Source: Deltaproteobacteria bacterium (lineage in GTDB: Bacteria > Desulfobacterota > Binatia > Bin18). From it: 34,931 nucleotides of DNA. A program made the position numbers and the translations under genes. Shown piece by piece: positions 2 to 26,105 of this stretch. The notes beneath the pieces were generated by a model that was not told the origin of the DNA, did no database searches, and saw only the letters and a program-made list of their open reading frames with translations. The stretch is taken from positions 1 through 34,931 of the forward strand of contig JABFSC010000778.1 of NCBI GenBank assembly GCA_013140885.1, in the 5' to 3' direction. Every line of letters starts with the position of its first letter. Within the stretch, counting starts at the first letter, position 1.

Positions 2-1027
2 CCACGGACAACCCTGAGTTATCAACATGTCACGGAACGCGAGGCCATGTACGGTGCGAGTCAGGAAGTGCCATTCCCAGGGAAACTGCGGCTGCGCGGC
101 GCGGTGGCGACCCGCGACGCCGAGCGCCTCGAACAAGAATATCTCGCGGCACGGCTGCGCATCATCGCGCGTCTGAAGGAAGCCTACTATGACCTCCATT
201 TTGTTCATCACTCAATGGCGGTGGTGGACAAGAACAAACGTATTCTTACGGACTTCGCGCATGCGGCTCAGGCCCGCTACGCGGTCGGGCGTGCCGTGCA
301 GCCGGATGTCTTTCGAGCGCAAACCGAATTATCACGGGCGCTCGCGCGCTTGGCGACGTTAGAACAGCGGCGGGATTCCCTGCGGGCGGAGGTCAATCGC
401 CTCGTGAACCGCCCGCCAGTGGACCCGCTGGGAACACCGCCGGAGATCACCCTGACTGGGCTCCAACATAGTCTGGCCGATCTTCAGACTATGATCGAAC
501 AGGCCGCACCGATGCTGCGCGCACAACGCAAAGGGGTCGAACGCGGAGACCAGGCGATCGCCTTGGCACGGCGGGAATATTTCCCGGATTTTGACATCGG
601 GGTGTTCGGCTTTCGCAACGAGACGATGCGACAGAATGGGTATCAATTCATGATCGGTATCACGGTGCCCTTGTACTACGTGACGAAACAGCAACAGGGA
701 GTACAGGAGGCGCTCGCGACACGTGAGAGCGCCGCGCAGGACCTCCAGGCCGTGCGGCAAGACCTGCTGTTCCGCCTCAAGGATAACTTCGCCCAAGTGC
801 AGCGCGCGGAACGGCTCATCTCGATCCTACGGGACGCTATCATTCCGCAGGCCACGTTCACACTTGAGTCGGCCCAGGCCGGATATGCGGTTGGCACGGT
901 TGATTTCTTGACCTTGTTAAACAGCCTACTCACGCTGCAAGAGAATCAACTCGAACTGCACGGCGAGATAGTCGAACACGAAAAGGCCATCGCTCGGCTT
1001 GAAGAAACCGTGGGGACCGCGCCATGA
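2..1027 (+). CDS. cusC: Outer-membrane efflux factor (TolC/CusC family), 5'-truncated by the window edge
   Basis: The reading frame is open from nt 2, with no stop before the listed ATG at 47. The sequence is helical and Ala/Leu/Gln/Arg-rich, typical of OMF proteins. Its stop overlaps the next start (ATGA at 1024-1027). It lies directly upstream of the adaptor and RND pump genes. Confidence 0.75.
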   Translation, partial: PRTTLSYQHVTEREAMYGASQEVPFPGKLRLRGAVATRDAERLEQEYLAARLRIIARLKEAYYDLHFVHHSMAVVDKNKRILTDFAHAAQARYAVGRAVQPDVFRAQTELSRALARLATLEQRRDSLRAEVNRLVNRPPVDPLGTPPEITLTGLQHSLADLQTMIEQAAPMLRAQRKGVERGDQAIALARREYFPDFDIGVFGFRNETMRQNGYQFMIGITVPLYYVTKQQQGVQEALATRESAAQDLQAVRQDLLFRLKDNFAQVQRAERLISILRDAIIPQATFTLESAQAGYAVGTVDFLTLLNSLLTLQENQLELHGEIVEHEKAIARLEETVGTAP

Positions 1028-2271
1028 GATTTTCCTTGGGATCGTTGCTGATCGGTATCACGATAGGTGGTGGTGTCGCGGTCGCGGTCTTCTGGGCTGC
1101 GCCGTTTACAACCGTCCGGGTAGCCCAGAACTCACACACCGGAGCGGCGTCGCCCTCATCCGCTCCGGTCACACTCGCTCACGCCAGTCATACCGCCTCG
1201 CCTTCGGCGCCGATGGGAGGGGACGACCCAGCGAAAATCCAGGCGACGCTGTCCGAGAATCAGATGGTGGTGAGTCCCGAACGTCTGCAATCCATCGGCG
1301 TGAAATTCGCCTCTGCCGAACGCCGTCTTCTCGAACGGACCATCCGGACGGTGGGGAGAGTCGAGATCGACGAGCGCCAGCTTGCGCGGGTGAATATCAA
1401 GATCGAGGGCTGGATCGACCAATTACACGTGAACTACACCGGCGAGCGGGTGAAGAAGGACCAACTGCTCTTTACCGTCTATAGTCCAGATCTGGTGGCC
1501 ACCCAACAGGAGTATCTCCTGGCCTTAAAGAGCGGACGGCAGCTCGGCGGCAGCGAATTCCCCGAGGTCGCGGAAGGAGCGAAGTCGTTACTTGAAGTGA
1601 GCCGACAGCGGCTCCAACTCTGGGATGTTCCTGAGCACCAAATCCAGGATCTGGAACGGACCGGCACGGTGCTCAAAGCGCTGCATATCCACTCCCCGAT
1701 TACTGGCACGGTCATCAACAAAGTGGCGATTGCCGGTTTGCACGTGAATCCGGGCGACGAGTTGTACACCATCGCGGACCTCTCGCGGATCTGGATTCTC
1801 GCCGACCTCTACGAGTACGAACTGCCACTGATCAAGATGGGACAGCAAGCGACGGTCACCCTCTCCTACGATCCGGGAACCGTCCTCACCGGGCGCGTTG
1901 GGTTCGTCTACCCCACGATTGATCCCCAAACCCGTACGGGAAAGGTCCGCTTCGAGGTCGAGAATCGCGGCGAACAGTTGAAGCCTGGGATGTATGCCAA
2001 CGTTGCACTTCAAGTCTCGTTCGGGACCCGGTTGGTCGTTCCGCGAGAAGCGATCCTGGAATCAGGGGAGCGCCAAGTCCTCTTCATCCACCACGGCGGC
2101 GGGATGCTCGCATGGCGGACGGCACGGCTCGGCCTCCAAGCTGGAGACTGGGTAGAGGTAGTCGAGGGAGTGAAAGAAGGCGAACACGTGGTCACGTCAG
2201 CCAACTTTTTGATCGACTCGGAAAGCCGCTTGAAGGCTGCGATCAGCGGTATGCGCGGCATGCAACATTAG
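1024..2271 (+). CDS. cusB: RND efflux periplasmic adaptor (membrane fusion protein, CusB-like)
   Basis: 415 aa with an N-terminal membrane anchor (LLIGITIGGGVAVAVFWAAP). The content resembles HlyD/MFP barrel-sandwich proteins (e.g. VNPGDELYTIADLSRIWILADLYEYE). It sits between the OMF and RND genes, with an ATGA overlap with the upstream gene. Confidence 0.85.
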   Translation: MRFSLGSLLIGITIGGGVAVAVFWAAPFTTVRVAQNSHTGAASPSSAPVTLAHASHTASPSAPMGGDDPAKIQATLSENQMVVSPERLQSIGVKFASAERRLLERTIRTVGRVEIDERQLARVNIKIEGWIDQLHVNYTGERVKKDQLLFTVYSPDLVATQQEYLLALKSGRQLGGSEFPEVAEGAKSLLEVSRQRLQLWDVPEHQIQDLERTGTVLKALHIHSPITGTVINKVAIAGLHVNPGDELYTIADLSRIWILADLYEYELPLIKMGQQATVTLSYDPGTVLTGRVGFVYPTIDPQTRTGKVRFEVENRGEQLKPGMYANVALQVSFGTRLVVPREAILESGERQVLFIHHGGGMLAWRTARLGLQAGDWVEVVEGVKEGEHVVTSANFLIDSESRLKAAISGMRGMQH

Positions 2272-2279
2272 GAGGGGCT

Positions 2280-5200
2280 ATGGTTGAACGCATCATCGAC
2301 TTTAGTGCCCGCAACCGCTTCATTGTGCTGCTCCTCGTCTTCGGTTCCGCCGCCGCCGGTCTGTGGGCGTTGAAGAACACGCCGATGGACGCCATTCCTG
2401 ACCTCTCGGATACCCAAGTCATCATCTATACCACGTGGATGGGACGTTCACCGGATCTCGTGGAAGATCAAGTGACCTATCCCATTGTGACCACCCTCCT
2501 GTCCGCCCCAAAAGTCACGGCCGTGCGCGGGTTCTCGGACTTCGGTTTCTCCTACGTCTATGTGTTGTTTGAGGACGGCACGGACCTCTATTGGGCACGA
2601 TCCCGCGTGCTGGAGTACATGAACCAGCTCCTGGGCCGTCTGCCAGAAGGAGTCACCCCTCAGCTCGGCCCAGATGCCACGGCTGTTGGCTGGGTCTTTC
2701 AATACGCGCTTGTCGATGAAAGCGGGCAGCAAGACCTGGCGTCCCTGCGGTCCTTCCAAGACTGGTACTTGCGCTACTGGCTGCGGAGTGTCGATGGCGT
2801 CGCCGAAGTGGCCAGCGTCGGTGGCTTCGTGCGCCAGTATCAGGTGAATTTGGATCCCACCAAGGTCCTCGCCTATAAACTGTCAATCTCAGAGATTATT
2901 GAAAAAATACGGATGAACAATAACGACGTGGGGGGCCGTGTCGTGGAGTTCTCCGGCATCGAATACATGATTCGCGGGCGCGGCTATATCAAATCGACCA
3001 CGGATATCGAGCGGATCGCCTTGAGTGTGAACCAGAACGGCACGCCGATTCTGCTGCGCGATGTCGCCACGGTGCGCTTAGGGCCGGATATGCGCCGCGG
3101 TGTGGTCGAACTCAACGGCCAGGGAGAAGTCGTTGGCGGCATTGTGGTCATGCGCTTCGGCGAAGATGTCCCCAAGGTGATTGCACGCGTGAAGGCCAAG
3201 CTGACCGCGCTCGCACCGTCGCTGCCACCAGGGGTTAAAGTGGTGAGCATGTATGATCGTAGCGACCTCATTCATGAATCCATCGCGACCGCGAATGAGA
3301 ATCTGCTCGAGGAACTCCTCGTCGTGAGTGTCTTGGTCGTGGGGTTTCTCTTGCACCTCCGGTCGGCGCTGATCCCGATCATCATGCTGCCGTTGGCGAT
3401 CCTGATTTCTTTCATCCCCGCGTACTTCCTAGGGGTTGGGCTCAACATCATGTCCATTGGCGGCATTATTGTCGCTATTGGCGATATGGTCGATGCCGCG
3501 ATTATCATCGTGGACAACGCGCATAAGCGGCTAGAAGAGTGGGAACAAGGAGGTCGAGTCGGCGACCGTGCCCAGATTCTCATTGACGCGGCCAAAGAAG
3601 TCGGCCCAGCGATTTTCACCTCCGTATTAGTCATTGCCATTTCGTTTACCCCGGTCTTCGCTTTGGAGGCGCAAGAAGGTCGCTTGTTCAAACCGTTGGC
3701 GTTTACCAACAACCTGGCGATTGCCATGAGTGCCGTGCTGGCGATTACCTTGATCCCCGCGTTACTGGTGCCTCTCATGCGCGGGCGCATCATCCCGGAA
3801 CACCGTCATCCGGTGAACCGGTTCTTACAGCAGCTCTATGCGCCGGTCCTCCGGCTCGCGCTGCGCCATCGTGGGGTCGTCGTCCTGCTTGCCGTTGGGC
3901 TGACCATCAGCATCGTTCCCATCTACCAACGGATGGGCTCCGAGTTCATGCCCCCCCTGTATGAGGGGACCATCTTGTACATGCCGACGACGTTGCCAGG
4001 GATTTCCGTGACCGAGGCGGGCATGCTGCTCCAGCAAATGGATCGGAAGCTGAAAGCCTTCCCAGAGGTTGCCCACGTCTTCGGGAAAGCGGGCCGCGCC
4101 GAAACGTCCACGGACTCCGCGCCCTTCAGTATGATGGAGGTCGTCGTTGGCCTCAAATCGAAAGACCAGTGGCGTCCGGGCATGACGTACGAAGCGCTCG
4201 TTGATGACATGGACAAGACGCTTCAATTTCCGGGTGTGACGAACGCCTGGACGATGCCGATCAAGGCGCGGACCGACATGCTCACCACGGGAGTACGAAC
4301 ACCCGTGGGCATCAAGATTTTTGGCCCTGATCTCAAGCAGATTGAAGAGATTGGTCAGCATATAGAAATGACGGTACGAAATGTCACCGGCACACGCAGC
4401 GTCTACGCGGAACGTGTATCGGGAGGATATTTCCTCGACTTCACCATCAACCGCGAGGAAATTGCCCGGTACGGGTTGGCGGTGATGGACGTCGGTCAGA
4501 TCATCGAATCCGCCATTGGAGGAGAAAACATTGCCACGACCATTGAAGGCCGCGAGCGCTATCCCATCAACGTGCGCTATTTGCGGGAACTGCGGGATGA
4601 TCCAGAAAAACTCAACCGGGTCCTGGTCCCGACACCCACGGGCGCGCAGGTGCCATTAGCGCAGTTAACGACGCTGCGATTCGTGTCGGGCCCACCGATG
4701 ATTCGTGACGAGGATGGCATGCTCTCCGGCTATGTGTACGTCGATATGACGGGGCGCGATGTCGGTGGCTATGTCGAGGACCTCAAACGCGCCGTACAGG
4801 ACAAGGTCACGTTACCGCCCGGCTACACCATCACGTGGTCAGGACAGTATGAGTTCATGCAACGGGTGCAGGCCCGTTTATTGATTGTCGTTCCACTGAC
4901 CATCGCCATTATTTTTGTGCTTTTCTATCTTGAGTTTCGCTCCATCTCCGAGACCCTCATGGTGATGCTCGGTCTGCCCCTCTGCCTGGTCGGCGCGATC
5001 TGGTACCTCGCTCTCTTGGAGTACAACATGAGCATTGCCGTGTGGGTGGGCATCCTGGCATTGGCCGGGACAGCCGCGGAGACGAGCGCGGCCATGCTGG
5101 TGTATTTGGACAGCGCCTGCGCACGCAGGAAAGGCGTAGGTCAGTTGCGGTCACTTCAGGATTTGCTGGAGACCGTACACGCTGGAGCGGTCGAACGCAT

Positions 5201-5432
5201 TCGTCCCATGGTGATGGTGAGTGTGGTCGATATTTTGGGACTCGTACCGACGATGTGGGCGACGGGGACGGGAGCGGACGTGATGAAACGCCTCGCGGCG
5301 CCAACGGTTGGTGGTGTGATGTCTGGGCTTGTCCTTACCCTATTCGTCATTCCGGCTTTGTACGCGATGTGGAAATGGCGCTGGGAAATACAGCCCGCAC
5401 TGGTACGGGCAAACGAAGGAATCCAAGCATAA
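2280..5432 (+). CDS. cusA: Heavy-metal-efflux RND inner-membrane pump (CusA-like, Cu(I)/Ag(I))
   Basis: The ORF track starts at 2112, but ATG 2280 is preceded by AGGAGG (2269-2274) and yields the typical RND N-terminus MVERIIDFSARNRFIVLLL. TM4 carries AIGDMVDAAIIIVDNA, which matches the HME-RND A-x5-D-x6-(E/D) proton-relay motif in its CusA-like form. Length is about 1050 aa. Confidence 0.9.
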   Translation: MVERIIDFSARNRFIVLLLVFGSAAAGLWALKNTPMDAIPDLSDTQVIIYTTWMGRSPDLVEDQVTYPIVTTLLSAPKVTAVRGFSDFGFSYVYVLFEDGTDLYWARSRVLEYMNQLLGRLPEGVTPQLGPDATAVGWVFQYALVDESGQQDLASLRSFQDWYLRYWLRSVDGVAEVASVGGFVRQYQVNLDPTKVLAYKLSISEIIEKIRMNNNDVGGRVVEFSGIEYMIRGRGYIKSTTDIERIALSVNQNGTPILLRDVATVRLGPDMRRGVVELNGQGEVVGGIVVMRFGEDVPKVIARVKAKLTALAPSLPPGVKVVSMYDRSDLIHESIATANENLLEELLVVSVLVVGFLLHLRSALIPIIMLPLAILISFIPAYFLGVGLNIMSIGGIIVAIGDMVDAAIIIVDNAHKRLEEWEQGGRVGDRAQILIDAAKEVGPAIFTSVLVIAISFTPVFALEAQEGRLFKPLAFTNNLAIAMSAVLAITLIPALLVPLMRGRIIPEHRHPVNRFLQQLYAPVLRLALRHRGVVVLLAVGLTISIVPIYQRMGSEFMPPLYEGTILYMPTTLPGISVTEAGMLLQQMDRKLKAFPEVAHVFGKAGRAETSTDSAPFSMMEVVVGLKSKDQWRPGMTYEALVDDMDKTLQFPGVTNAWTMPIKARTDMLTTGVRTPVGIKIFGPDLKQIEEIGQHIEMTVRNVTGTRSVYAERVSGGYFLDFTINREEIARYGLAVMDVGQIIESAIGGENIATTIEGRERYPINVRYLRELRDDPEKLNRVLVPTPTGAQVPLAQLTTLRFVSGPPMIRDEDGMLSGYVYVDMTGRDVGGYVEDLKRAVQDKVTLPPGYTITWSGQYEFMQRVQARLLIVVPLTIAIIFVLFYLEFRSISETLMVMLGLPLCLVGAIWYLALLEYNMSIAVWVGILALAGTAAETSAAMLVYLDSACARRKGVGQLRSLQDLLETVHAGAVERIRPMVMVSVVDILGLVPTMWATGTGADVMKRLAAPTVGGVMSGLVLTLFVIPALYAMWKWRWEIQPALVRANEGIQA

Positions 5433-5515: not shown

Positions 5516-6403
5516 ATGAAAAGAACCTCTCTTCTCTCTCTCGTCATTCTTGCGACACCCGTGTTGGTGGCGGTGCTGTCCATCGAAGGCCGATTCGCGC
5601 ACGCCCAGAGCGGCCACACTCAGGACGCAAGCAAGGATGAACGTGACCAGATGCTGGCCGCGCGGATTCAAGAACTCCCGGTCAAGGTCGTTAGACTCAA
5701 GGCGGCTCTGGCTGAAAACCAGTGGGGGCCCGCGACCGGTGTGGCTGGCGTCACCACGATAGGGATGCCGATGGGGGCGGGCGGCCAGCCGTCTGGCATG
5801 GGGATGATGGAAGGTGGTCACATGGGGATGGGGATGCAAGGTCAGGGAGGTGGCATGTCCTCAATGACAGCCGGCAGCGGCGCCTCATCTGGTTCCGGGG
5901 TAATGGGCGGTATGGACATGATGGGAAAGGTCAGCGGCTCAGGGAGGATGCCCATGTCGTCAGCGCTACCCGGCTTTCCTGGGGCCTCGCATCTGTATCA
6001 TGTTGGCGCCACCGGTTTCTTCCTCGATCACCCTGAGCACATCACGCTCACGATGGAGCAGCAAACAGCGCTGAGTCGTATCAAGGAAAAGGCGCTCTTG
6101 GAGCAGGCAACGACGCAGCGAAAGATCGAGGGGACAGAACAGGAGTTATGGACGTTGACCGGCGCGGAGCAGCCACTTGTCGACAAAGTTGATGCGAAAG
6201 TGAGGGAAATCGAAAAGCTCCGCGCCGATCAGCGGCTCGCATTCATCCGTGCGGTTGGGGAGGCCGCCCAGGCGCTGACGGATGAGCAACGCAAGGCACT
6301 CTTAGGGCAAATCCCCCCCGCGACTCCCAGTACGCCGCAGGCTGCGACTCCCGGCATGCCGTCAGGGGCACCCAACGCCGGTACTGGGATGAGTGATATG
6401 TGA
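5516..6403 (+). CDS. Secreted Met/Gly-rich protein with a C-terminal LTxxQ (CpxP/ZraP/Metal_resist-like) helical domain
   Basis: ATG 5516 follows GGAAAGGAG and gives the signal peptide MKRTSLLSLVILATPVLVAVLSIEGRFAHAQ. A Met/Gly-rich stretch follows (MGMPMGAGGQPSGMGMMEGGHMGMGMQGQGGGMSSM). The C-terminal part has two LTxxQ motifs (LTMEQQTAL, LTDEQRKAL). It is a paralog of 10637-11314. The upstream part of the 5042 ORF overlaps cusA and was rejected. Confidence 0.8.
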   Translation: MKRTSLLSLVILATPVLVAVLSIEGRFAHAQSGHTQDASKDERDQMLAARIQELPVKVVRLKAALAENQWGPATGVAGVTTIGMPMGAGGQPSGMGMMEGGHMGMGMQGQGGGMSSMTAGSGASSGSGVMGGMDMMGKVSGSGRMPMSSALPGFPGASHLYHVGATGFFLDHPEHITLTMEQQTALSRIKEKALLEQATTQRKIEGTEQELWTLTGAEQPLVDKVDAKVREIEKLRADQRLAFIRAVGEAAQALTDEQRKALLGQIPPATPSTPQAATPGMPSGAPNAGTGMSDM

Positions 6404-6417
6404 GAAGTACGGGAGAT

Positions 6418-8328
6418 ATGCGCATGCGTAACAGGTATCATCGCCGTAGCGTGTTCTCACGCCTTCGCGTGGCCGTCGTGTGCCTGGGATTAGCGGTTGC
6501 GACCCCGGGCTATAGCCAAGTGTCGCCCAGTGAGCACGAAGCGCATCATCCCGGTCAAGGACAGACCGCGCCAGTTGCCTCACCGCCCGCGAGTCCGGGA
6601 GCGGCGGGCAATATGGGACAAGGGATGGGGGAGATGATGAAGGGGATGGGTGAGATGATGAAAGGGATGGGGATGTCCCCGCGCAAAGAGCTCTATCCCT
6701 CACTGATGGAGTTACCGGAGCTGCCGCCAGAACGGCGTGTCGAGATGGAGACGTTGGCCCATGAGCGCATGCTGACAGGGACCGCACTGCTCTCTTCGGG
6801 CCTCGACCAACTCGCGCAGGCGACGGCGCAAAAGGACTATTCGGCCATGCAGAAAGCAACCGCGCAGGTGCGGTTCGGTCTCGCTCAGTTCGAGAGTGGA
6901 TTGGCGGCTCACCGCGCGTTGGCCGACGGCAAGGGGGCCCGCGACGTGGCCCTCCAATGGTTCCAACGTACGATGAGCCTCGCGCCGGCGGCCGACGATG
7001 AGTCTCCGCGTGAGATCTTTGGCTTATCTTGGTTTCACTACATGACGATGGTTCTCCTCACGGCATTCGCGATCACGATGATTTGGATGTACTTCCACAA
7101 GATGCGGCGAGCCACGCAGCTCCTTCAAAGCTTGACGGGGGGCATCCCACTCGCGCCGACAACCGCGACTGTTGCCGCCGCGCTGGGACAAACCTCTCCG
7201 CCCGTCAGTGGGCTCGCTTCTCCCCTCGTTCCCGTGGCCGATGGGGCGTTCGTCCCTGCGCAGCCGGGTAAATGGTTAGGCAAACTGCGTGTGGGCCGGA
7301 TCTTCCAGGAGACGCCAGACGTGAAGACGTTTCGGCTCATGAACCCCCTTGGCGGCGTGCTGCCGTTCGCATACCTCCCTGGGCAGTTTCTTACCGTGAC
7401 CGTGACCCCGGACGGCAAGCTGGTGAAGCGCGGCTACACCATCGCCTCCTCGCCGACGCAGCATGACTACGTGGAGATTACCGTCAAGCACGAAGAGGGG
7501 GGAGTGGTGTCGGGCTTCCTCCACGCCCGTGTTCAGGAAGGGGATCTGTTGGAGTTTTCCGGTCCCTCAGGCTCCTTCATTTTCACCGGGCGGGAGTGTC
7601 GGTGTATCCTGCTCATCGGCGGCGGCGTGGGCATCACGCCGCTGATGAGCGTCCTTCGCTACCTGACCGACCGCGCCTGGCCGGGGGACATCTTCCTCAT
7701 GTACGGTTGTAAGAGCCCCCGCGACATCATCTTCCGCGAAGAACTGGATTACCTCCAGCGGCGCCATCCGAACCTGCGCGTGGTGATCGTCGTGTCGCAT
7801 GCCGAAGGGACGGATTGGAAGGGGCCGACAGGCTTCATTACCAAGGAACTGATCAGCCAGTCCGTGCCGGATATCGCGTCGCGCTATGTGCACATCTGTG
7901 GTCCCGTGCCCATGATGGAAGCGGCGAAGAAGATCCTGGCCGAACTCGGCGTACCAAAGGAGCGCGTCAAGACTGAGGCGTTCGGTTTGGCTATGGGGAA
8001 GCCGGAGCCGACGATGCCGCTCGCCGAACTTCCGCTTGGGAAGGAAGAGAAGGCCGCCCAGATAGCCCTCCCCGTAGTTACGTTCTCTCTGTCGAATAAG
8101 TCGGCCCCGTTTGCGCCTGACAAGGTCATCCTCGATGTGGCGGACGAGATCGGCGTCGAGATCGACAACTCCTGTCGCGTGGGTACCTGCGGGACTTGCC
8201 GGGTGAAGCTGCTGGCCGGCCAGGTGACCATGGCCGTCGAGAATGGCCTGGAGCCCGGCGACAAGGAGCAGGGCATCATCCTAGCCTGCCAGGCCAAGTC
8301 TACGGGCAACGTGACGGTGGAGGCGTGA
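6418..8328 (+). CDS. Membrane-anchored FNR-like oxidoreductase (FAD/NAD(P)H domains plus C-terminal plant-type 2Fe-2S) with an N-terminal periplasmic Met/His-rich domain
   Basis: The N-terminus looks like a signal peptide (RLRVAVVCLGLAVATPGYSQ). It is followed by HEAHHPGQGQ and GMGEMMKGMGEMMKGMGM, then a helical region and a single TM helix (WFHYMTMVLLTAFAITMIWMYF). FNR motifs are RGYTIAS (RxY[ST]), GGVVSGFL, LLIGGGVGITPLMS and ICGPVPMM. The ferredoxin motif is C-x4-C-x2-C-x29-C (CRVGTCGTCRV...LACQ). The start is uncertain: GTG 6400, ATG 6418 or ATG 6424. Confidence 0.85.
   Translation: MRMRNRYHRRSVFSRLRVAVVCLGLAVATPGYSQVSPSEHEAHHPGQGQTAPVASPPASPGAAGNMGQGMGEMMKGMGEMMKGMGMSPRKELYPSLMELPELPPERRVEMETLAHERMLTGTALLSSGLDQLAQATAQKDYSAMQKATAQVRFGLAQFESGLAAHRALADGKGARDVALQWFQRTMSLAPAADDESPREIFGLSWFHYMTMVLLTAFAITMIWMYFHKMRRATQLLQSLTGGIPLAPTTATVAAALGQTSPPVSGLASPLVPVADGAFVPAQPGKWLGKLRVGRIFQETPDVKTFRLMNPLGGVLPFAYLPGQFLTVTVTPDGKLVKRGYTIASSPTQHDYVEITVKHEEGGVVSGFLHARVQEGDLLEFSGPSGSFIFTGRECRCILLIGGGVGITPLMSVLRYLTDRAWPGDIFLMYGCKSPRDIIFREELDYLQRRHPNLRVVIVVSHAEGTDWKGPTGFITKELISQSVPDIASRYVHICGPVPMMEAAKKILAELGVPKERVKTEAFGLAMGKPEPTMPLAELPLGKEEKAAQIALPVVTFSLSNKSAPFAPDKVILDVADEIGVEIDNSCRVGTCGTCRVKLLAGQVTMAVENGLEPGDKEQGIILACQAKSTGNVTVEA
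6622..6672 (+). repeat. In-frame 21-bp tandem repeat (2.4 units) encoding GMGEMMK
   Basis: gggatgggggagatgatgaag (6622-6642), gggatgggtgagatgatgaaa (6643-6663) and gggatgggg (6664-6672), read directly from the sequence. Confidence 0.9.
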
Positions 8329-8329
8329 G

Positions 8330-9088
8330 ATGAAAGAGCACGAGCCTATGGTCGTCGGAGGGTTGGTGGCCCTGCTGGTGGTACTGTGGCTAGGCTTCCG
8401 GTTCCACGTCTCCCCCAGCTTTGCTGGCAGTTTCTGGGGTGGCGTGTTCGGGGTATCGGGCGCGCTGCTCATGCTCTTGTCCGCGGTGTACCTGGTGGTC
8501 AAGCGAGTTCCGCCCCTTAAATTATGGGTCACCGGCCGAGTCTCTATGCAGACCCTGCTGACCTGGCACATGTATACCGGCATCGTGGGCGCCCTCCTGG
8601 GCTTGCTGCACACGGGTCATAAGTTCAACAGCCCCCTCGGAATCGCCCTGACGGCGGTGTCGCTCCTCGTCGTCCTGAGCGGGTTCGTCGGGCGCCATTT
8701 GATGAAGCAGATTTCCTTGGAGATCCGCGAAAAGAAGGAAATGCTGACCAGTTTAGAGTTGGCCTACCGACAGACGGTGGGCGAGGTGGCCGCGCATCCC
8801 GATCTGACCACCATCCTGTGGCCCCTGGCGGGATTCTGGTCACGCCTGGTGGTGGGGCTCCTCGTGACGACTCCGACGGAATCGGGCTCGCTGCCCGCCC
8901 CCGTTCGTGCGCTCCGGCTGGCTGATGCCATCGCTGACCTGGAGTACGCCATTAGGACTCACGAGACCTTCAAACGATGGTTCGCCGCTTGGCTCAAGGT
9001 TCACATCCTCACCGGCTTCGTTCTGTATAGCTTGCTGGGCCTGCACATCTGGGCGGGCATTTACTTTGGGCTGAGGTGGTTCGCATGA
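8330..9088 (+). CDS. Polytopic membrane protein, putative di-heme b-type cytochrome (ferric-reductase/MsrQ-like logic)
   Basis: GGAGG (8319-8323) lies 6 nt before ATG 8330, which is 1 nt after the upstream stop. The protein has about 6 hydrophobic helices. Two helices carry His pairs exactly 14 residues apart within a shared pattern: WHMYTGIVGALLGLLH and VHILTGFVLYSLLGLH. Confidence 0.6.
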   Translation: MKEHEPMVVGGLVALLVVLWLGFRFHVSPSFAGSFWGGVFGVSGALLMLLSAVYLVVKRVPPLKLWVTGRVSMQTLLTWHMYTGIVGALLGLLHTGHKFNSPLGIALTAVSLLVVLSGFVGRHLMKQISLEIREKKEMLTSLELAYRQTVGEVAAHPDLTTILWPLAGFWSRLVVGLLVTTPTESGSLPAPVRALRLADAIADLEYAIRTHETFKRWFAAWLKVHILTGFVLYSLLGLHIWAGIYFGLRWFA

Positions 9089-9927
9089 AACTATGGCCAT
9101 TCGTAATCGCGGCGGTGGCTCTCGTCGTGGCGTTGTTTGGTGGGTTTTATTTCCTGCGAGTCCACCCTGGAGGCCTGCGTTCGGGGGTATTGGACAAGAC
9201 GGCCTGGCAACGCATGGCCGTTCCCGGCGCGTTGTCCAACGCACACGCATTTTTGGAACACAACTGCGCCGCCTGTCATACTCCGGTGACGGGTGCCGAC
9301 GACATCAAGTGCATCGGCTGCCACGCGAATGACGAAGCTCTGCTTCAGCGTCAGCCCACCGTGTTTCACGCGACGATCGGATCCTGTGCCTCCTGCCACG
9401 GCGAACACCAGGGCGTCGATACACATGTGGGGGAGATGGATCACGCAAAGTTAGCGAAAATCGCCCTTACTTCATTGACAACCACTAGCCCCCAGAGTGA
9501 GCAAAAGCGAGGGAGCACGGACCTTGTGACATGGCTCCGTCCGCACCAAGACATGGTAGCGGCCACGAGCCACCCACAGCTGACTCCGCTGGAGGCGACG
9601 TTGGACTGCCGAACTTGTCACGGTACTAAGGACCGTCACGTCGGACTTTTCGGGGGAGACTGTGCCGCGTGTCATGGGACCGCGGCGTGGACGATCGCTG
9701 CATTCCGCCACCCCTCGCCGCGCTCACTTGACTGCGCCCAGTGTCATCAGGCTCCGCCCAGCCATTACATGGAGCACTTCAACATGGTTTCGAAAAGAGT
9801 CGCTGGGCAAGACAACGATGCGAGTAGTCAGTGTTGCGGCCCAGTGCAAGTCAACCAGTGCTACCGCTGTCATCAGACGACGTCGTGGAACGACATCAAG
9901 GGGGTCGGATGGTACAAGCACCACTGA
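9085..9927 (+). CDS. Membrane-anchored heptaheme c-type cytochrome
   Basis: ATG 9085 overlaps the upstream stop (ATGA) and follows GAGGTGG. The N-terminal anchor is MKLWPFVIAAVALVVALFGGFYFL. There are seven CxxCH motifs: CAACH, CIGCH, CASCH, CRTCH, CAACH, CAQCH, CYRCH. Confidence 0.9.
   Translation: MKLWPFVIAAVALVVALFGGFYFLRVHPGGLRSGVLDKTAWQRMAVPGALSNAHAFLEHNCAACHTPVTGADDIKCIGCHANDEALLQRQPTVFHATIGSCASCHGEHQGVDTHVGEMDHAKLAKIALTSLTTTSPQSEQKRGSTDLVTWLRPHQDMVAATSHPQLTPLEATLDCRTCHGTKDRHVGLFGGDCAACHGTAAWTIAAFRHPSPRSLDCAQCHQAPPSHYMEHFNMVSKRVAGQDNDASSQCCGPVQVNQCYRCHQTTSWNDIKGVGWYKHH
9700..9927 (+). repeat. Copy 1 of a 228-bp dispersed direct repeat (3' end of the cytochrome c gene)
   Basis: Aligned by eye to 18931-19158 with 9 mismatches in 228 bp. 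Similarity ends at both borders. Confidence 0.9.
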
Positions 9928-10083: not shown

Positions 10084-10156
10084 GCTGCTCCAGTTCCCAC
10101 GTTGTTCGGGATAATGCATTCGCATTACCCGTAGATAGAGAATGGAGGAGAACGCC

Positions 10157-10471
10157 ATGATGAAATACAGAATCGTTACACTCGCAATTGTTGCGCTCTT
10201 GTCCGTGTCTTTCCCTGCCTCATCCGTTCTGGCCGCCGAGATGGTTGGTGTCATGATGAAGGATGGCAAGATGATGATGATGGACGGCAAGGCGACGGGA
10301 CCGATGGACCACGAGATGACGATGCCCGACGGCCACAAGATCATGCCTGACGGCACGATGAAAATGAACGACGGCAAAGAGATGCGCATGCAGGAAGGCC
10401 AGATGATGACGATGGACGGGAAGATGCTGGAGGGTGGCAAGGACATGAAAATGGAAGGGATGGACAAGTAG
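10157..10471 (+). CDS. Small secreted, extremely Met-rich repeat protein (M-x-DGK type repeats), probable periplasmic Cu(I)/Ag(I) binder
   Basis: GGAGG (10144-10148) lies 8 nt before ATG 10157. The signal peptide is MMKYRIVTLAIVALLSVSFPASSVLAAE. The mature part reads MMKDGKMMMMDGK...MPDGHKIMPDGTMKMNDGKEMRMQEGQMMTMDGKMLEGGKDMKMEGMDK. Confidence 0.8.
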   Translation: MMKYRIVTLAIVALLSVSFPASSVLAAEMVGVMMKDGKMMMMDGKATGPMDHEMTMPDGHKIMPDGTMKMNDGKEMRMQEGQMMTMDGKMLEGGKDMKMEGMDK

Positions 10472-10636: not shown

Positions 10637-11314
10637 ATGAAACGTTACTTAGTGTTGTCAATCGTCGCCCTATTCGCGGCATCTCTCAATGGCGTCACAT
10701 GGGCCGATATGGATGAAATGGGCGCCATGCAAAGCAGCGGCGGCGCCATGCCCGCCGGAGCACCGGCAGCGGGAATGAGCGGGGGTGGTAGCATGGGCAT
10801 GGACAAGATGGAAATGGTCGGGATGATGGGCATGGGCGCGATGAGCAGGGGCGCGATGAGCAGCGGCGCAGCGGGCACTATACCGCAGTCCGCACTGCCC
10901 GGCTTCCCCGGCGCGTCGCACCTTTACCACATTGGCAGTACGGGCTTCTTCCTCGATCACCCGCAGCACATCGGGCTCACGATCGAGCAGCAGGTGGCGC
11001 TCAACAAAGCCAAAAAACAAGCGTTACTCGCGAAGAGCAGGGCCGACCGCGCGATCGGGCAAGCCGAGCAGGAGCTGTGGATACTGACCGCCGCCGATCA
11101 GCCGGACGCCGCGAAAATCCAGGACAAGATTGGCGAAATCGGAAAGCTGAAGAGCGATCAACGGATCGCGTTCATCCGCGCCGTAGGCGACGCGAGCAAC
11201 CTCCTCACCGACGACCAGCGCAAAAGCCTCACTGGTTTCGCGCCACCAGCGTCCGCGAATTCCATGGTAGCTCCCGATGCCGCGATGCCCGCTGGCGGCA
11301 TGAAAGACATGTGA
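10637..11314 (+). CDS. Secreted Met/Gly-rich LTxxQ (CpxP/ZraP-like) protein, paralog of 5516-6403
   Basis: AAGGAG (10623-10628) lies 8 nt before the ATG, and a signal peptide is present. It shares the block ALPGFPGASHLYH[VI]G[AS]TGFFLDHP[EQ]HI.LT[MI]EQQ.AL ... DQR[LI]AFIRAVG[ED]A...LTD[ED]QRK[AS]L and a C-terminal M[SK]DM with the 5516 gene. Confidence 0.8.
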   Translation: MKRYLVLSIVALFAASLNGVTWADMDEMGAMQSSGGAMPAGAPAAGMSGGGSMGMDKMEMVGMMGMGAMSRGAMSSGAAGTIPQSALPGFPGASHLYHIGSTGFFLDHPQHIGLTIEQQVALNKAKKQALLAKSRADRAIGQAEQELWILTAADQPDAAKIQDKIGEIGKLKSDQRIAFIRAVGDASNLLTDDQRKSLTGFAPPASANSMVAPDAAMPAGGMKDM

Positions 11315-14195: not shown

Positions 14196-14468
14196 ACACG
14201 CCCGCTCGAAGCATCGCGGAGCGCGGTTGCTCGAAATTGATGGAAGAACCACGGCAAAATTGATGGGAGACAGCAACAACCAAGAAAGAAACCTGAATCC
14301 ACGGCCAAGCATTGAATTTGCCGGTTTCGGACTCAGTTTATGTGGCTTAGCGGCAATCTCCATTTTCACCCATTGGGTGCTGTCTCGGTATTGCGCTAGG
14401 GACCGCTGTCATTGGGAGAAACTGCATTTTTGATTCTTTACCCGTGGATTCAGGAAAGAAACATAACC

Positions 14469-16934
14469 ATGAAAGAATCGCAATCCGTGACCATAGATCC
14501 CATCTGCGGAATGACCGTGGACGAAGCAACCGCTCTCCACGCGGAACGCGAGGGAAAGACGTTCTACTTTTGCAGCGACCACTGTCGGCTCAAGTTTCGG
14601 TCAGCGCCGGCGAGCGTGACGCATGCGGAAGTGCCTCCCGGCGGCTCTCAGTCTCCTCTCGCGCACGAGCACGGTGACCGTTCGACGGCGTGGTCCTCGA
14701 CGCAATATTTTTGCCCGATGTGCCCTGGCGTGGAATCCGACCAGCCCGGTGACTGTTCGCAATGCGGGATGGCGTTGGAGCGCAATCCCGCACGGGTCGG
14801 GCTGGTGTCAGGAAAAACGATTTACACCTGTCCGATGCACCCCGAAGTGCGGCAGGACCATCCCGGCGATTGCCCCAAGTGCGGCATGACGCTGGTGCGG
14901 AAGACCCCGACGGCGAGCCCGGATCAAGTGGAGGACGCTGAGCTGCATGACATGACGACGCGCTTCTGGATCGGTGCGGCGCTGACGTTGCCGGTGTTTT
15001 TCCTGGCGATGGCGCACGTGATCCCGGCGCTGGCCAGGCAGTCCTGGGCGGATAGTCACACCTCGCGCTGGATACAACTTGCGCTCACCACGCCCGTGGT
15101 CTGGTGGGCGGGCGGGCCGTTCTTCCGCCGGGGCTGGCGCTCGGTCGTGACGCGTCACTTGAACATGTTTACGCTGATCGCCCTCGGCGTGGGCGCGGCG
15201 TTCGTCTTTAGCGCGGTGGCCATGCTCGCGCCCGACCTGTTCCCGCATACCATGCGACACGAGGGCAAGGTGGCCATCTACTTTGAAGCCGCCGCGGTGA
15301 TCGTTGTTCTCGTGTTGCTGGGGCAGGTGCTCGAGCTCCGTGCCCGCAGCCGTACCGGCAGCGCCATCAAAGCGTTGCTCAACCTCGCCCCGCCCATGGC
15401 GCGGCGGGTCACACCGGGGGGCGATCATGAAGTCTCGCTCGACCAAGTGAAAGTCGGCGACCAGTTACGGGTTGTTCCAGGTGACAAGGTGCCTGTCGAT
15501 GGCGTGGTCGTGGAAGGCCATTCCAATGTGGAGGAATCCATGATCACCGGCGAACCGCTTCCGGTGGAAAAGAGCGTCGGCGACAAAGTGACGGGCGGCA
15601 CCGTCAATGGAACCGGCAGTTTCGTCATGCGCGCCGAGCGGGTCGGGAGCGACACGTTGCTCGGGCAGATCGTCAACATGGTTGCCGAAGCCCAGCGCAG
15701 CCGTGCACCCATTCAAGGTCTCGTGGACAAGGTCGCGAGCATCTTCGTGCCGGTGGTGCTGGCGGTGGCAGTGCTTACTTTCGTTGTCTGGCTATGGCTG
15801 GGGCCAGAGCCAGAGCTCGCGCACGCCATCGTCAACGCCGTTGCGGTCCTCATCATTGCCTGCCCGTGCGCCCTCGGCCTGGCCACGCCCATGTCCATCA
15901 TGGTCGGCGTCGGACGCGGTGCGCAGGAAGGCGTGCTCGTGAAAAACGCCGAAGCGCTCGAACGGTTGGAGAAAGTCACCACGCTCGTCGTGGACAAGAC
16001 GGGCACCCTGACGGAGGGCAAACCTAAGCTCGTGGATGTCCTGCCCACCGGCGGTTTCGAGACGAAGGAATTTCTGCGGCTCGCCGCCTCACTGGAGCAG
16101 AACAGCGAACACCCACTCGCCGCCGCGATTGTGCAGGGCGCGAAGGAGCAAGGCATCGCCATCGAGACGGTAAAAGACTTTCGTTCGGTGACGGCGGGCG
16201 GTGTTCTCGGCACCGTCGCTGGTCGCGCGGTGATGATCGGCAAGCCGGCCTTCCTGCGAGACAAAGGCATTGCCAGTCTGGAGCCGCTCGAAGCCTCGGC
16301 CGTGCAACTCCAGGAGGAAGGCAAGACCGCGATGTATGTCGCCGTGGATGGCAAGCCAGCGGGAATCCTCGCCGTCGCTGACCCGATCAAATCGACCACC
16401 CCCGAAGCCATCCGCGAACTCCACGCGCTCGGTTTGAAACTCGTCATGCTCACCGGCGACAACCGCCGCACCGCCGCCGCAGTAGCGAAGACACTTGGCC
16501 TCGATGCGGTGGAAGCGGACATCGAACCCGCCGGCAAAGTCAGCCATGTGAAGAAGCTGCGGGCGGAAGGCAACCACGTCGCGATGGCTGGCGACGGCAT
16601 CAACGACGCCCCCGCCCTGAGCGAAGCCGAAGTCGGCATTGCGATGGGCACGGGCACCGACGTGGCCATGCAGAGTGCTGGAGTCACCCTCGTGAAAGGC
16701 GACCTCCGCGGTATTGCCAAAGCGATTCGCCTCAGTCGCGCCACCATGCGGAATATCCGGCAGAATCTGTTCTTCGCCTTTGTCTACAATGCGCTGGGAA
16801 TTCCGGTGGCGGCGGGCGTGTTGTACCCGTTCTTCGATTTGCTGCTCAGCCCGATCATTGCCGGTGCCGCGATGAGCCTGAGTTCAGTGTCCGTCATCAG
16901 CAACGCCTTGCGGCTGCGAAAGGTGAGGCTTTGA
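14469..16934 (+). CDS. copA: Cu(I)/Ag(I)-translocating P1B-1-type ATPase with an N-terminal TRASH/YHS-like domain plus two CPM[CH]P...C..CGM metal-binding modules
   Basis: Catalytic motifs are [15 protein letters not shown] and the TM CPC ([12 protein letters not shown]). The P1B-1 signatures are N-x6-YN-x4-P ([14 protein letters not shown]) and MxxSS (MSLSSVS). The N-terminus has CGMTV...YFCSDHC, then [24 protein letters not shown] and [24 protein letters not shown]. The ATG 14469 start was chosen over the 14412 ORF start. Confidence 0.92.
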
Positions 16935-17494: not shown

Positions 17495-17546
17495 TGAAGC
17501 ACATCAGTGGATGGTTGGGCCGCGTACACGTGTCGGGGAGACAGGC

Positions 17547-18863
17547 ATGACGAGTCACCTGGCGAACTACCCGAATCAACCAGTCAGCAGCGAAGAGATG
17601 CTGGACGCGCTCCAGCGGGACGCCTTCGGATACTTCCTGCACGAGACTAACCCTGCAAACGGCTTGGTGGTAGACAAGACGCAACCGGACGCCCCCGCGA
17701 GTATCGCCGCCGTTGGGTTTGCACTGGCAGTATATCCGGTTGGCGTCGAGCGCTCATGGATGACGCGCGCCGAAGCAGCAGAGCGAACGTTGGCGGTGTC
17801 ACGGTTCTTCTGGACTAGCCCGCAGGGGACGGCCCCGGACGCGACGGGTTACAAAGGATTCTACTACCACTTTCTCGACATGAAGACTGGACGGCGTGCC
17901 GGGAGGTGTGAGCTGTCCACGATCGATACCGCTTTCCTGCTCGCTGGAATGCTCACCGCCGCAACCTATTTCAATCAGGATTGCGCGGACGAGCGGGAGA
18001 TCCGTACGTTGGCCGATGCGCTCTACCGCCGTACCAATTGGCAGTGGGCGCGAAACGGTGGAGCGACGATCACCCATGGGTGGAATCCTGAAAGCGGCTT
18101 TTTGAAGTATCGCTGGGAAGGCTACGACGAGGCCCTGCTCGTGTACGTGCTGGGCCTTGGTTCGCCGACGTACCCGCTGCCAAAGGAAAGCTATGCGGCG
18201 TGGACCTCCACCTACGAGTGGAAGAAGATCTATGGGCACGAGTTCCTGTATGGCAGCTCGCTCTTCATTCATCAATACTCGCATCTATGGATCGACTTCC
18301 GTGGGATCCAGGATGTCTTCATGCGCGGCAAGGGCATCGACTACTTCGAGAACAGCCGGCGCGCGACCCATGTCCAGCAGCAGTACGCGGTTCATAATCC
18401 TCACGCATTCGTGGGCTACGGCCAATATTTCTGGGGGCTGACCGCGAGCGATGGGCCCGGCCAGACGGTGCGAAGGGTCCAAGGAGTCGAGCGCCACTTC
18501 TTCGATTATGTGGCGCGCGGTGTGCCGTACGGCCCGGACGACGGGACCGTCGCGCCGTGGGCAGTGGTCGCTTCGCTACCCTTTGCCCCGGAGATCGTGC
18601 TGCCGACGGTTCGGCATTTCAAAGAGGTCTATCCGGAGATCACGGGCAAGTATTGCTTCAAGTGCAGCTTCAATTTGACCTTTCCGCATGAGTCGCAGGG
18701 CAAGCCTGGCTGGACCTCGCAGTACCACTACGGGATCAACTTGGGGCCGGTCGTATTGATGTGCGAGAACCACCGCTCGGGCTTGCTCTGGCGACTCACA
18801 CGGCGTTGCCCCTACCTCGTCACGGGGTTACGGCGAGCGGGATTTGCGAACGGCTGGTTATGA
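17547..18863 (+). CDS. Glucoamylase-like / GH144-type (beta-1,2-glucanase-like, PF10091-type) protein
   Basis: GGGGAG lies 6 nt before ATG 17547. Motifs recalled for this family are GFYYHFLDMKTG, STIDTAFLLAGML, WEGYDEALLVYVLGLGSP and GLTASDGPG. No signal peptide is evident. Confidence 0.6.
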   Translation: MTSHLANYPNQPVSSEEMLDALQRDAFGYFLHETNPANGLVVDKTQPDAPASIAAVGFALAVYPVGVERSWMTRAEAAERTLAVSRFFWTSPQGTAPDATGYKGFYYHFLDMKTGRRAGRCELSTIDTAFLLAGMLTAATYFNQDCADEREIRTLADALYRRTNWQWARNGGATITHGWNPESGFLKYRWEGYDEALLVYVLGLGSPTYPLPKESYAAWTSTYEWKKIYGHEFLYGSSLFIHQYSHLWIDFRGIQDVFMRGKGIDYFENSRRATHVQQQYAVHNPHAFVGYGQYFWGLTASDGPGQTVRRVQGVERHFFDYVARGVPYGPDDGTVAPWAVVASLPFAPEIVLPTVRHFKEVYPEITGKYCFKCSFNLTFPHESQGKPGWTSQYHYGINLGPVVLMCENHRSGLLWRLTRRCPYLVTGLRRAGFANGWL

Positions 18864-19860: not shown

Positions 19861-20103
19861 ATGGAACACACCACACACACACAACCTACTCGGGCGGAAG
19901 GCAGGTTCCAGCACGGTAGTCGTTTCATCCTCTTTGCTTTTCTTGCCATCGCCGGCTTCTATCTCCTTACCGAGCATACGGCCCATGTTTTCGGCATCCT
20001 GCCGTACCTCCTGGTGTTCTTATGCCCGATCCTGCATTTCCTTCATGGTGGACACGGTGGGCACAACTCCCAACATCGTCAAGAGAAAGGGGACGAACGA
20101 TGA
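19861..20103 (+). CDS. DUF2933-like small membrane protein with a His-rich tail
   Basis: GGGAGAG lies upstream of ATG 19861. The sequence LLTEHTAHVFGILPYLLVFLCPILHFLHGGHGGH resembles the DUF2933 pattern. Its stop overlaps the next start (ATGA). Confidence 0.7.
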   Translation: MEHTTHTQPTRAEGRFQHGSRFILFAFLAIAGFYLLTEHTAHVFGILPYLLVFLCPILHFLHGGHGGHNSQHRQEKGDER

Positions 20104-25679: not shown

Positions 25680-25739
25680 AGAGAGAAAATCCCGAGCGTG
25701 AGGGAGCCATCCTCGGATGACGCGGGAGGAGAAATACGT

Positions 25740-26105
25740 ATGAGTGACCACGAAGTAAATAGGCACATCGAGATGTCCAACGTGCCTCATGGTCCTCCTG
25801 ACAGAGGCGGGCAGGCAGTGAACGATCCGGTCTGCGGCATGGAAGTGAATCCAGTGACCACGGTTCACACGCATGAGTACGGTGGGCAGAGATATTTTTT
25901 CTGTAGCAGTCAATGCTTGGCGAAATTTCGCGTGGAACCCAGCAAATATCTGGTCTCTGCTGTCGAGCCCTCTACGGTTGTTACCGCACCCGACAACACA
26001 GGGCAACCAGCAGTGGCAACCGACGCTAGGTACTCATGCATCCTGAAATTCGTCACAAAGAGCCAGGAGCCTGTCCGCGGTGTGGCATGGCGCTCGAACC
26101 TGTGA
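25740..26105 (+). CDS. TRASH/YHS-domain ORF, apparently the detached N-terminus of the downstream Cu ATPase
   Basis: GGGAGGAG lies 8 nt before ATG 25740. The ORF contains CGMEV...YFFCSSQC, as in copy 1. Homology ends at ...ARYSC, after which the frame runs out of register to a stop at 26105. Confidence 0.6.

Follow-up and report, generated by a model that had tools for sequence, protein, structure and literature searches.

A recurrent fusion of a periplasmic His/Met-rich membrane protein to an NAD(P)H-ferredoxin-type reductase in bacterial copper-resistance islands

Yeast Fre1/NOX, STEAP and Dcytb proteins reduce Cu(II) and Fe(III) outside the cytoplasm before uptake through the Met-rich Ctr1, and the sections of a 2020 review on which we draw present copper reduction at the cell surface as a eukaryotic feature (PMC7558416). 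The bacterial cupric reductases named in those sections are CcoG, NDH-2 and a few uncharacterised activities; CcoG contains two [4Fe-4S] clusters, serves cbb3 oxidase assembly and has no known electron donor, and NDH-2 reduces Cu(II) unspecifically via quinol (PMC7558416). None of the bacterial enzymes listed there is both NAD(P)H-driven and directed towards the periplasm. Here we describe a gene at positions 6418-8328 (plus strand) of a 34,931-nucleotide stretch, contig JABFSC010000778.1 of assembly GCA_013140885.1 from a Deltaproteobacteria bacterium (Desulfobacterota, Binatia), hereafter the window. Its 636-residue product is a natural fusion between a periplasmic His/Met-rich membrane protein and an otherwise ordinary NAD(P)H-ferredoxin-type reductase, and it heads a set of membrane and cytochrome genes that may export electrons to periplasmic copper.

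Other described systems share parts of this layout. MsrQ-Fre-MsrP and ScsB/DsbD pass electrons from a cytoplasmic reductase through a membrane redox protein to a periplasmic acceptor. The membrane protein MsrQ contains two b-haems and receives its electrons from a flavin reductase of the FNR family, and the ScsB/DsbD type is linked to copper tolerance. Periplasmic copper sites, such as those of CopC/PcoC, CusF and SilE, typically combine His and Met without Cys, with His suiting Cu(II) and Met clusters suiting Cu(I)/Ag(I), and pumps of the Cus/Sil type handle Ag(I) as well.

The fused protein and the families it joins

The open reading frame (ORF) is intact and uninterrupted from its first ATG at 6418 to a stop codon ending at 8328, a second ATG at 6424 being better spaced from the GGGAG at 6411-6415. 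Pfam finds an FAD-binding domain (FAD_binding_6, PF00970, amino acids (aa) 299-387, E 2.9e-14) and an NAD(P)H-binding domain (NAD_binding_1, PF00175, aa 399-505, E 1.3e-22), encoded together at 7312-7932, followed by a plant-type [2Fe-2S] ferredoxin domain (Fer2, PF00111, aa 562-627, E 2.3e-13) at 8101-8298, and nothing in aa 1-290. Each domain has its class motif: RGYT at aa 338-341 for RxY(S/T), GGVGITP at aa 402-408 for GGxGxxP, and C-x4-C-x2-C-x29-C at aa 586-624, exactly as a preliminary description of the gene had it. The FAD-NAD-Fer2 order of the C-terminal 346 residues, and the motifs RxYT, GGxGxxP and C-x4-C-x2-C-x29-C, are common to phthalate dioxygenase reductase (2pia), GbcB, Hcr and PaaE. 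Benzoate dioxygenase reductase BenC (1krh), the closest PDB relative of the reductase half (E 3.3e-31), has the same domains in another order, and NqrF runs from a transmembrane (TM) helix through Fer2 to FAD/NAD, whereas Fer2 is C-terminal here. All NCBIfam equivalog profiles (GbcB, PaaE, BenC, Hcr) scored far below their cut-offs, the best being GbcB with 249 against 500 bits, and the NqrF model TIGR01941 gave 80 bits against a cut-off of 295. Its three domain features place the C-terminal half in the FNR/[2Fe-2S] reductase class, and by these profile scores it is not an equivalog of GbcB, PaaE, BenC, Hcr or NqrF. Soluble oxygenase reductases of the class lack the 290-residue secreted and membrane-bound N-terminal part, and within the window no oxygenase partner gene lies near the target.

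The preliminary description had listed in the N-terminal part (below, the N-domain) a signal-like N-terminus, a HEAHHPGQGQ stretch, a tandem GMGEMMK, a TM helix and a Pro/Ala linker, all of which are found in the ORF. The signal peptide (aa 1-33, 6418-6516), delineated by hydropathy and homologues, has an Arg-rich n-region, a hydrophobic core and a cleavage-type site between GYS and Q. It is followed by an EHEAHHP histidine motif conserved in homologues (aa 39-45, 6532-6552), a Pro/Ala spacer, and a Met-rich motif, NMGQGMGEMMKGMGEMMKGMGM (aa 65-86, 6610-6675), that includes a 21-bp tandem repeat. A KELYPSLM..LPELxPExR segment then leads into a periplasmic three-helix domain (together aa 90-186, 6685-6975), defined by conservation and by an AlphaFold2 (AF2) model with helices at aa 104-137, 141-170 and 174-186 at pLDDT 85-98; aa 30-100 are predicted to be disordered. 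About 150 helical periplasmic residues had been proposed earlier; the helical domain is borne out, and its confidently helical part shrinks to about 85 residues (aa 104-186, pLDDT >90). A single TM helix (aa 205-229 by hydropathy, 7030-7104; AF2 helix 205-241) is followed by KMRR on the predicted cytoplasmic side, and a Pro/Ala/Gly-rich cytoplasmic linker (aa 236-290, 7123-7287; 8 Pro, 9 Ala and 7 Gly among 55 residues, pLDDT about 50) connects it to the reductase. In relatives with separate halves, this linker corresponds to the C-terminal tail of the N-domain protein, which has a PPPGSAPxLAG-type ending.

Conservation, measured on an alignment of 73 N-domain homologues, singles out the putative metal-binding segments and the membrane helix. 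The periplasmic part has His and Met and no Cys. Its H40, H43, H44 and P45 are each kept in at least 90% of the 73 sequences, and Q34 of the signal site and M77, M80 and M81 of the Met motif are invariant or at least 90% conserved, so that the Met-rich extension, whose presence in homologues had been in question, is a shared trait. At the same level stand K90, L92, Y93, P94, M97, R107, M118, M144, G161, R166, W181, F182 and M186 in the KELYPSLM segment and helical domain, whose invariant residues are P94, M97, R107, G161, A164, R166, G171, A178, W181 and F182, and H207, L214, F217, M221, M224, Y225, F226, K228, M229, R230 and R231 in the TM helix. By region, conservation is 0.78 for the His motif, 0.78 for the Met motif and 0.77 for the TM helix, compared with 0.48 for the spacer and 0.33 for the signal peptide. 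A TM helix as conserved as the metal motifs implies specific contacts within the membrane.

Topology was derived on the same alignment from hydropathy, the signal-peptidase site and charge rules rather than from a dedicated predictor. The target has two hydrophobic segments, aa 11-29, preceded by seven Arg, and aa 206-228, followed by HKMRR. In 66 of 68 homologues A, G or S precedes the near-invariant Gln34, and position -3 is occupied by a small or aliphatic residue, which fits a signal peptidase I site; among homologues, the 15 residues that follow the TM helix have a net charge of +1.9, and that ahead of the helix is -0.25. The reductase, which requires NAD(P)H and Fe-S assembly, belongs in the cytoplasm. 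By these rules the fusion is a type-I membrane protein, N-out with one TM helix and C-in, its reductase cytoplasmic, and the earlier placement of the N-terminal domain outside the cytoplasm holds. A Tat signal is unlikely, as homologues do not share the RR found in the signal peptide of the window protein, and a lipoprotein was rejected on reading the sequences, which have no lipobox and no conserved Cys.

The N-terminal part is a distinct, separate protein family. A protein search with aa 1-290 returned 193 proteins, mostly stand-alone proteins of 200-320 aa with no Pfam domain, others joined to FAD/NAD domains; a profile search collected 524 clusters at 50% identity (E<=1e-3) in forms of about 250 and about 620 aa. 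The window protein has all of the family motifs: the signal peptide, HxxHHP, GxMMxGMG, KELYPxLM, W-F-K and FH...MxxMYFxKMRR. Kinship to described proteins did not emerge. Pfam and NCBIfam gave no match to the N-domain of the target, and Pfam gave only spurious low-complexity matches to the 73 homologues; a profile search of PDB sequences yielded 0 matches at E<=10. A structure-similarity search, proposed earlier for residues ~90-200, failed to place the domain: the AF2 model met only generic helical hairpins in the PDB (Foldseek, best E 0.22). In composition (His, Met clusters, no Cys; partly disordered or helical) the N-domain is like CopC/PcoC, CusF, SilE/PcoE and Spy/CpxP/ZraP-like proteins, but it has no sequence or profile similarity to them: it falls outside PF13801/PF07813 (Spy/CpxP/ZraP, LTXXQ, Metal_resist), and hhalign against the neighbouring Metal_resist protein (10637-11311) gave a probability of 5%.

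The 21-bp repeat (6620-6672 by Tandem Repeats Finder; 2.5 copies, 87% matches) encodes GMGEMMK twice, at aa 69-75 and 76-82. Two GxMMx units (GGMMEGMGEMMKGMG) are usual, being present in 38 of 62 distinct homologue segments, whereas the nearest relatives (contigs L063 and L064) have a single unit (MGQGMGEMMR...) and two exact MGEMMK copies occur in the window alone among the 62. The closest metagenomic relative is only 62% identical, so the repeat could be compared between species only; the collections held no near-identical contig, and an exact search of metagenomes with the flanks was empty. Judged by this comparison, the duplication is a recent, lineage-specific and minor event that restores the usual two-unit Met motif. 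The earlier suggestion that its copy number could vary reduces, between species, to this minor duplication.

The fusion itself recurs. Among 58 loci classified in contigs from one genome per species, the two halves are fused in 33 and lie in adjacent separate genes in 25, and no locus has the N-domain without the reductase (58 of 58 adjoining or fused). The preliminary description had presented the topology as an unusual chimera; the chimera is real and conserved, but far from being a one-off it is the commoner state. Fused genes are found in Planctomycetota, Bacteroidota (including the cultured Pedobacter immunditicola and two Hymenobacter species), Acidobacteriota, Chloroflexota, Hydrogenedentales, Bdellovibrionales and Opitutaceae, and split loci are mostly from other Verrucomicrobiota. 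Finished plasmids of Alteromonas macleodii, Legionella pneumophila (conjugative), Methylocystis, Methylophaga, Pontibacter, Spirosoma, Roseomonas and Variovorax also carry the fused gene, annotated on plasmids merely as "2Fe-2S iron-sulfur cluster-binding protein" or "FAD-binding oxidoreductase". Mis-assembly or a frameshift as the source of the fusion, including an N-terminal region that is really a separate gene, is ruled out by the 33 independent fused loci together with a syntenic 629-aa homologue in L063.

Where the halves are separate, the FNR/Fer2 gene lies immediately downstream of the stand-alone N-domain gene, and in L001 stop and start overlap as ATGA; judged from such arrangements, the split genes are translationally coupled. 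In a neighbour-joining tree of reductase halves all deep branches are fused and split forms are interleaved within one PVC clade, which points to several fission or fusion events. Recurrent fusion is a Rosetta-stone indication that N-domain and reductase work together, and the absence of an N-domain without a reductase, the ATGA overlap and the interleaved states argue that the halves act as one unit; their separation in 25 of 58 loci shows that the covalent link is not required for function. Two variant architectures were seen. Protein P0063 has the N-domain fused to a CBM48/AMPK glycogen-binding domain in place of the reductase, and protein P0009 (352 aa, on a 14.7-kb contig) has the N-domain and TM helix joined directly to [2Fe-2S] with the FAD/NAD domains missing; it may be a genuine deletion variant or else stem from faulty assembly.

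Membrane partners and a proposed electron route

Two bp after the stop codon of the fused gene starts a gene for a 252-aa membrane protein, here called memB (8330-9088, plus strand), and overlapping the end of memB lies a gene for a membrane-anchored heptahaem cytochrome c (9076-9927, plus strand) with seven CxxCH motifs and an N-terminal TM segment; 65 of 69 homologues of the cytochrome have seven CxxCH. N-domain, FNR/Fer2, memB and cytochrome c follow one another colinearly in 54-55 of the 58 loci, memB being present in 55 and the cytochrome in 54; in the window these genes abut or overlap, and a simple scan from the upstream cusA to the cytochrome revealed no convincing terminator. The module spans at least six phyla and is also present on Alteromonas and Legionella plasmids; this four-part gene set is a widespread and uncharacterised constituent of copper-resistance islands. 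Its colinear order, the abutting genes and the conserved TM helix argue that the fused protein forms a complex with its membrane partners.

Over 1,500 relatives of memB exist, and Pfam has no family for it. Its H26, H80, H94, H97, H225 and H239 persist in an alignment of 77 sequences whose identity falls as low as 25%, and the two H-x13-H pairs, H80/H94 and H225/H239, are kept in 99-100% of them. By the positive-inside rule, both H-x13-H helices run parallel, in-to-out, and such pairs on two parallel TM helices provide the geometry of two stacked bis-His b-haems; memB is probably a di-haem cytochrome b. Two further His of memB, H26 and H97, are invariant as well, and prediction puts them at the periplasmic face, together with the invariant H207 of the fused protein (7036-7038). 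In the closest relative of the window's memB (91% identical; JGI contig L062), the expected cytochrome position is occupied by three short genes of 163, 41 and 119 aa (1680-3007), maybe a frameshifted or degraded gene or a low-quality assembly.

The route that these parts suggest resembles that of Fre1/NOX, STEAP and Dcytb, in which electrons pass from NAD(P)H through flavin and two bis-His b-haems to an extracytoplasmic metal, with His pairs 13 apart on two TM helices and an outer Met/His-rich metal segment. The bacterial module differs in consisting of separate polypeptides with no detectable homology to these proteins, in its resistance rather than uptake context, and in having an additional [2Fe-2S] domain and a heptahaem cytochrome c. 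Ferric_reduct (PF01794) has no Pfam match in the target, and the FAD/NAD(P)H domain of the target does not directly follow a haem TM domain in the same chain: reductase and memB are separate polypeptides, and the reductase is preceded by a single TM helix of non-haem type. Compared with MsrPQ and ScsB/DsbD, the window has no molybdoenzyme or thiol-disulfide genes, memB is not a recognisable MsrQ/FRD member, and a TM helix and periplasmic domain of its own tether the reductase. CcoG and NDH-2 resemble the module in its proposed Cu(II)-to-Cu(I) chemistry and in being located at the membrane but lack a haem conduit, an FNR/[2Fe-2S] module and a periplasmic His/Met arm, and Pfam finds no Fer4-type domain of the CcoG kind in the target or its neighbours.

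Previous work has touched the module at one point. Homologues of memB and of the heptahaem cytochrome are the "orf1" and "cyt" that lie downstream of the fused gene on an Alteromonas plasmid and that correspond to genes of the published AltDE hydrogenase operon, where they were studied only as potential accessory genes of the hydrogenase; in the parts of the report consulted, orf1 and cyt of the HynSL hydrogenase cluster are unnecessary for HynSL activity in Escherichia coli, and the fused gene upstream of orf1 is absent from the HynSL constructs (PMC3102683). These tests were the only related report in a full-text literature search, in which neither the fused protein nor the module was found described, and the module goes unmentioned in the consulted parts of a genomic study of Alteromonas copper resistance (PMC8478169). 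On the A. macleodii plasmid pAM1A3 (L110, 11638-18357), a [NiFe]-hydrogenase cluster is found immediately downstream of the three genes for the fused protein, memB and the cytochrome.

We posit that electrons enter a membrane complex of four parts through one of its subunits, the fused protein. Electrons would pass in the cytoplasm from NAD(P)H to FAD and the [2Fe-2S] cluster, from there to the two b-haems of the adjacent memB, and on to the periplasmic heptahaem cytochrome c. The conserved TM helix would pack against the membrane partners, through contacts that are conjectural, and tether the reductase. On the outer side, EHxxHHP would capture periplasmic Cu(II), electrons from the haems would reduce it, and the resulting Cu(I) would move to the Met-rich motif and then to Met-rich carriers, CusCBA or other copper-handling proteins, in a His-to-Met hand-off modelled on the two-site logic of CopC/PcoC. 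H207 together with H26 and H97 of memB is a candidate for (i) a third haem or (ii) an interfacial metal site, and such a site, near the outer haem, could be where reduction takes place. The protein would thus be a periplasm-facing, NAD(P)H-driven cupric reductase with substrate arm and electron-input module on one polypeptide, a reading that we hold at a little under even confidence. The more general proposal, of a previously unrecognised, plasmid-mobile complex that reduces periplasmic copper or silver with cytoplasmic NAD(P)H and forms a counterpart of Fre/STEAP/Dcytb built from non-homologous parts, is more tentative.

Several points weigh against the cupric-reductase proposal. The b-haems of memB are deduced from His spacing only, and all of its Pfam matches lie below threshold: DUF4405 in 14 of 41 homologues (best 1e-5) and Ferric_reduct (PF01794, cut-off 28 bits) in 8 of 41 (best 0.012; E 0.29 for the window's memB), two families that we take to belong to the two-haem cytochrome b clan. 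Its AF2 model found no match at E<0.3 in the PDB with Foldseek, and a PDB profile search was empty. One would not expect a resistance island to turn Cu(II) into Cu(I), which is more toxic, and multicopper oxidases, which perform the opposite chemistry, are sometimes encoded nearby. CusA lies within 10 kb of the module in 5 of 58 loci only, and feeding Cus can accordingly not be its general role. Finally, the Alteromonas module abuts a [NiFe]-hydrogenase cluster, a hint of other redox partners, and the terminal acceptor could instead be another metal or an oxidant.

Alternative explanations

The preliminary description saw in the chimera a direct coupling of periplasmic Cu(I)/Ag(I) binding to cytoplasmic redox activity, either by sensing and gating or by tethering the metal near the conduit. 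The coupling gains from the adjacency of a probable haem conduit and from the copper island. For a sensor, in which the His/Met domain would detect Cu(I)/Ag(I) and switch the cytoplasmic reductase so that electrons are exported only under metal stress, speak the conserved metal-type motifs, joined to the reductase by a single conserved TM helix, and the fusion in 33 of 58 loci; yet in the other 25 the two are separate polypeptides, which weakens covalent gating, the linker of about 55 residues, poorly conserved and predicted to be disordered, is a poor conduit for conformational signals, and there is no HAMP, PAS or kinase domain among the Pfam and NCBIfam matches. We therefore regard a switch of this kind as unlikely, and tethering of a putative metal-binding arm next to the conduit fits better. 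More improbable is that the same conduit performs another chemistry, the reduction of Cu(I), Ag(I) or Au to elemental metal, or of Fe(III), with the arm as a nucleation or binding site. Its anatomy would be identical to that of a cupric reductase, the arm resembles SilE/PcoE-type metal sponges (in composition only), P1B-ATPases, the most frequent neighbours, bring Cu(I) into the periplasm, and one memB homologue bears the UniRef name "Iron reductase"; that name is automatic, however, the window showed no genes for iron uptake or siderophores, and one-electron reduction of Cu(II) and reduction to metal fit the data alike.

Exported electrons might also serve protection, by detoxifying periplasmic oxidants that arise under copper stress, through a peroxidase-like use of the multihaem cytochrome, or by keeping Met-rich copper carriers functional, with the N-domain as a Met-rich scavenger or chaperone anchored to the complex. 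MsrPQ-Fre and ScsB/DsbD are precedents for exported reducing power in envelope repair, and very Met-rich periplasmic proteins (7-23% Met) surround the module, but Met-sulfoxide reductase, Mo-enzyme and thiol-redox genes were not found in the window and the invariant HxxHH points to metal binding over scavenging; we give this explanation little credence. Still less plausible, to the point of being very improbable, is a loose association in which the N-domain is an anchored periplasmic copper binder, the reductase serves another cytoplasmic partner and the two are mere operon neighbours, or, in the extreme form, in which the fusion is an assembly or frameshift artefact. Although the genes are separate in 25 of 58 loci and the reductase half on its own resembles ordinary oxygenase reductases, no oxygenase partner gene is nearby, the N-domain is always with the reductase in the 58 loci, colinearity with memB and the cytochrome is strict, and fusions occur in 33 independent species of at least five phyla and on finished plasmids. 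Import of electrons linked to hydrogenase, which the Alteromonas context suggests, is a remote possibility: the linkage was seen in Alteromonas only and was absent from six other fully listed neighbourhoods (the 58 loci were not screened for it), and orf1 and cyt are dispensable for hydrogenase activity according to the consulted parts of the report (PMC3102683).

The copper island and its implications

Directly upstream of the module are cusC/cusB/cusA-like heavy-metal RND efflux genes (47-5432, plus strand; Pfam OEP, HlyD_D23/CusB and ACR_tran), whose order is preserved in the syntenic contig L063, and a gene for a secreted Met/Gly-rich Spy/CpxP-like (Metal_resist) protein (5516-6403, plus strand; PF13801, E 3.6e-06, below the gathering score), which has a signal-like N-terminus and 7% Met and stops 15 bp before the target. 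Downstream, memB and the cytochrome are followed by genes for a DUF6799 protein, a second Spy-like protein, a DUF2314 protein, an M50 protease and a YHS/HMBD P1B-ATPase, and the window further includes a second P1B-ATPase, a YHS protein, an AraC regulator and an ICMT-family methyltransferase. Across the 58 loci a Met-rich Spy-like (Metal_resist) gene is nearby in 41 and a P1B-ATPase lies within 10 kb in 40. Multicopper oxidase and CopB genes are near the module in L063, the closest syntenic contig, and on the Legionella plasmid, and CopC/CopD and CusA genes are nearby on the Alteromonas plasmid. In the window, the first P1B-type ATPase (14412-16934) has HMBD and YHS domains and the second (26036-28246) has HMBD; a 135-aa YHS-domain protein (25698-26105) overlaps the start of the second ATPase ORF, which may be mis-set.

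Short in-frame repeats are scattered through the island. The DUF6799 gene (10142-10471), which encodes a secreted protein with 23% Met, has about five imperfect 24-bp units at 10301-10414 that specify MPDGHK/MxMxDGK-like sequences; DUF6799 genes are near the module in six other loci, and a literature search found no paper mentioning the family. The first Spy-like gene has a 24-bp repeat (1.9 copies) at its 3' end (6320-6366), and the second a 15-bp repeat (three copies) in its Met/Gly-rich part (10825-10869). Low-complexity metal-motif segments in the island seem prone to small duplications.

An ICMT/PEMT-family membrane methyltransferase is encoded at 20022-20753 in the window and at 15104-16008 in L063, 3244-4136 in L062 and 13863-14830 in L111; it recurs near the module on a Planctomycete-like contig and on the Legionella plasmid, and in these relatives a small DUF2933 gene precedes it. 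The parts consulted of the Alteromonas copper-resistance study place a DUF2933 and methyltransferase pair next to copA (PMC8478169). Glucan-related genes, for a putative glucoamylase and a GH57 enzyme, lie inside the copper island (17511-18863 and 21709-24102); 8 of the 58 loci, from other phyla, have a glucoamylase homologue no more than 10 kb from the module, and a small CBM48 gene is near it in L001 (5891-6184).

What is new here is the joining of a known reductase class to an unclassified, conserved periplasmic/TM domain, a fusion that sits within an uncharacterised, widespread, mobile and putatively electron-exporting module and argues for joint action of the N-domain family and the reductase at the membrane. 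The fused gene is known in cultured organisms, some of them likely to be genetically tractable. If electrons are indeed exported to periplasmic copper, the module would add a missing redox step to models of copper handling in the envelope and would show how Cu(II) becomes the Cu(I) recognised by Cus, CopA-type proteins and Met-rich carriers.

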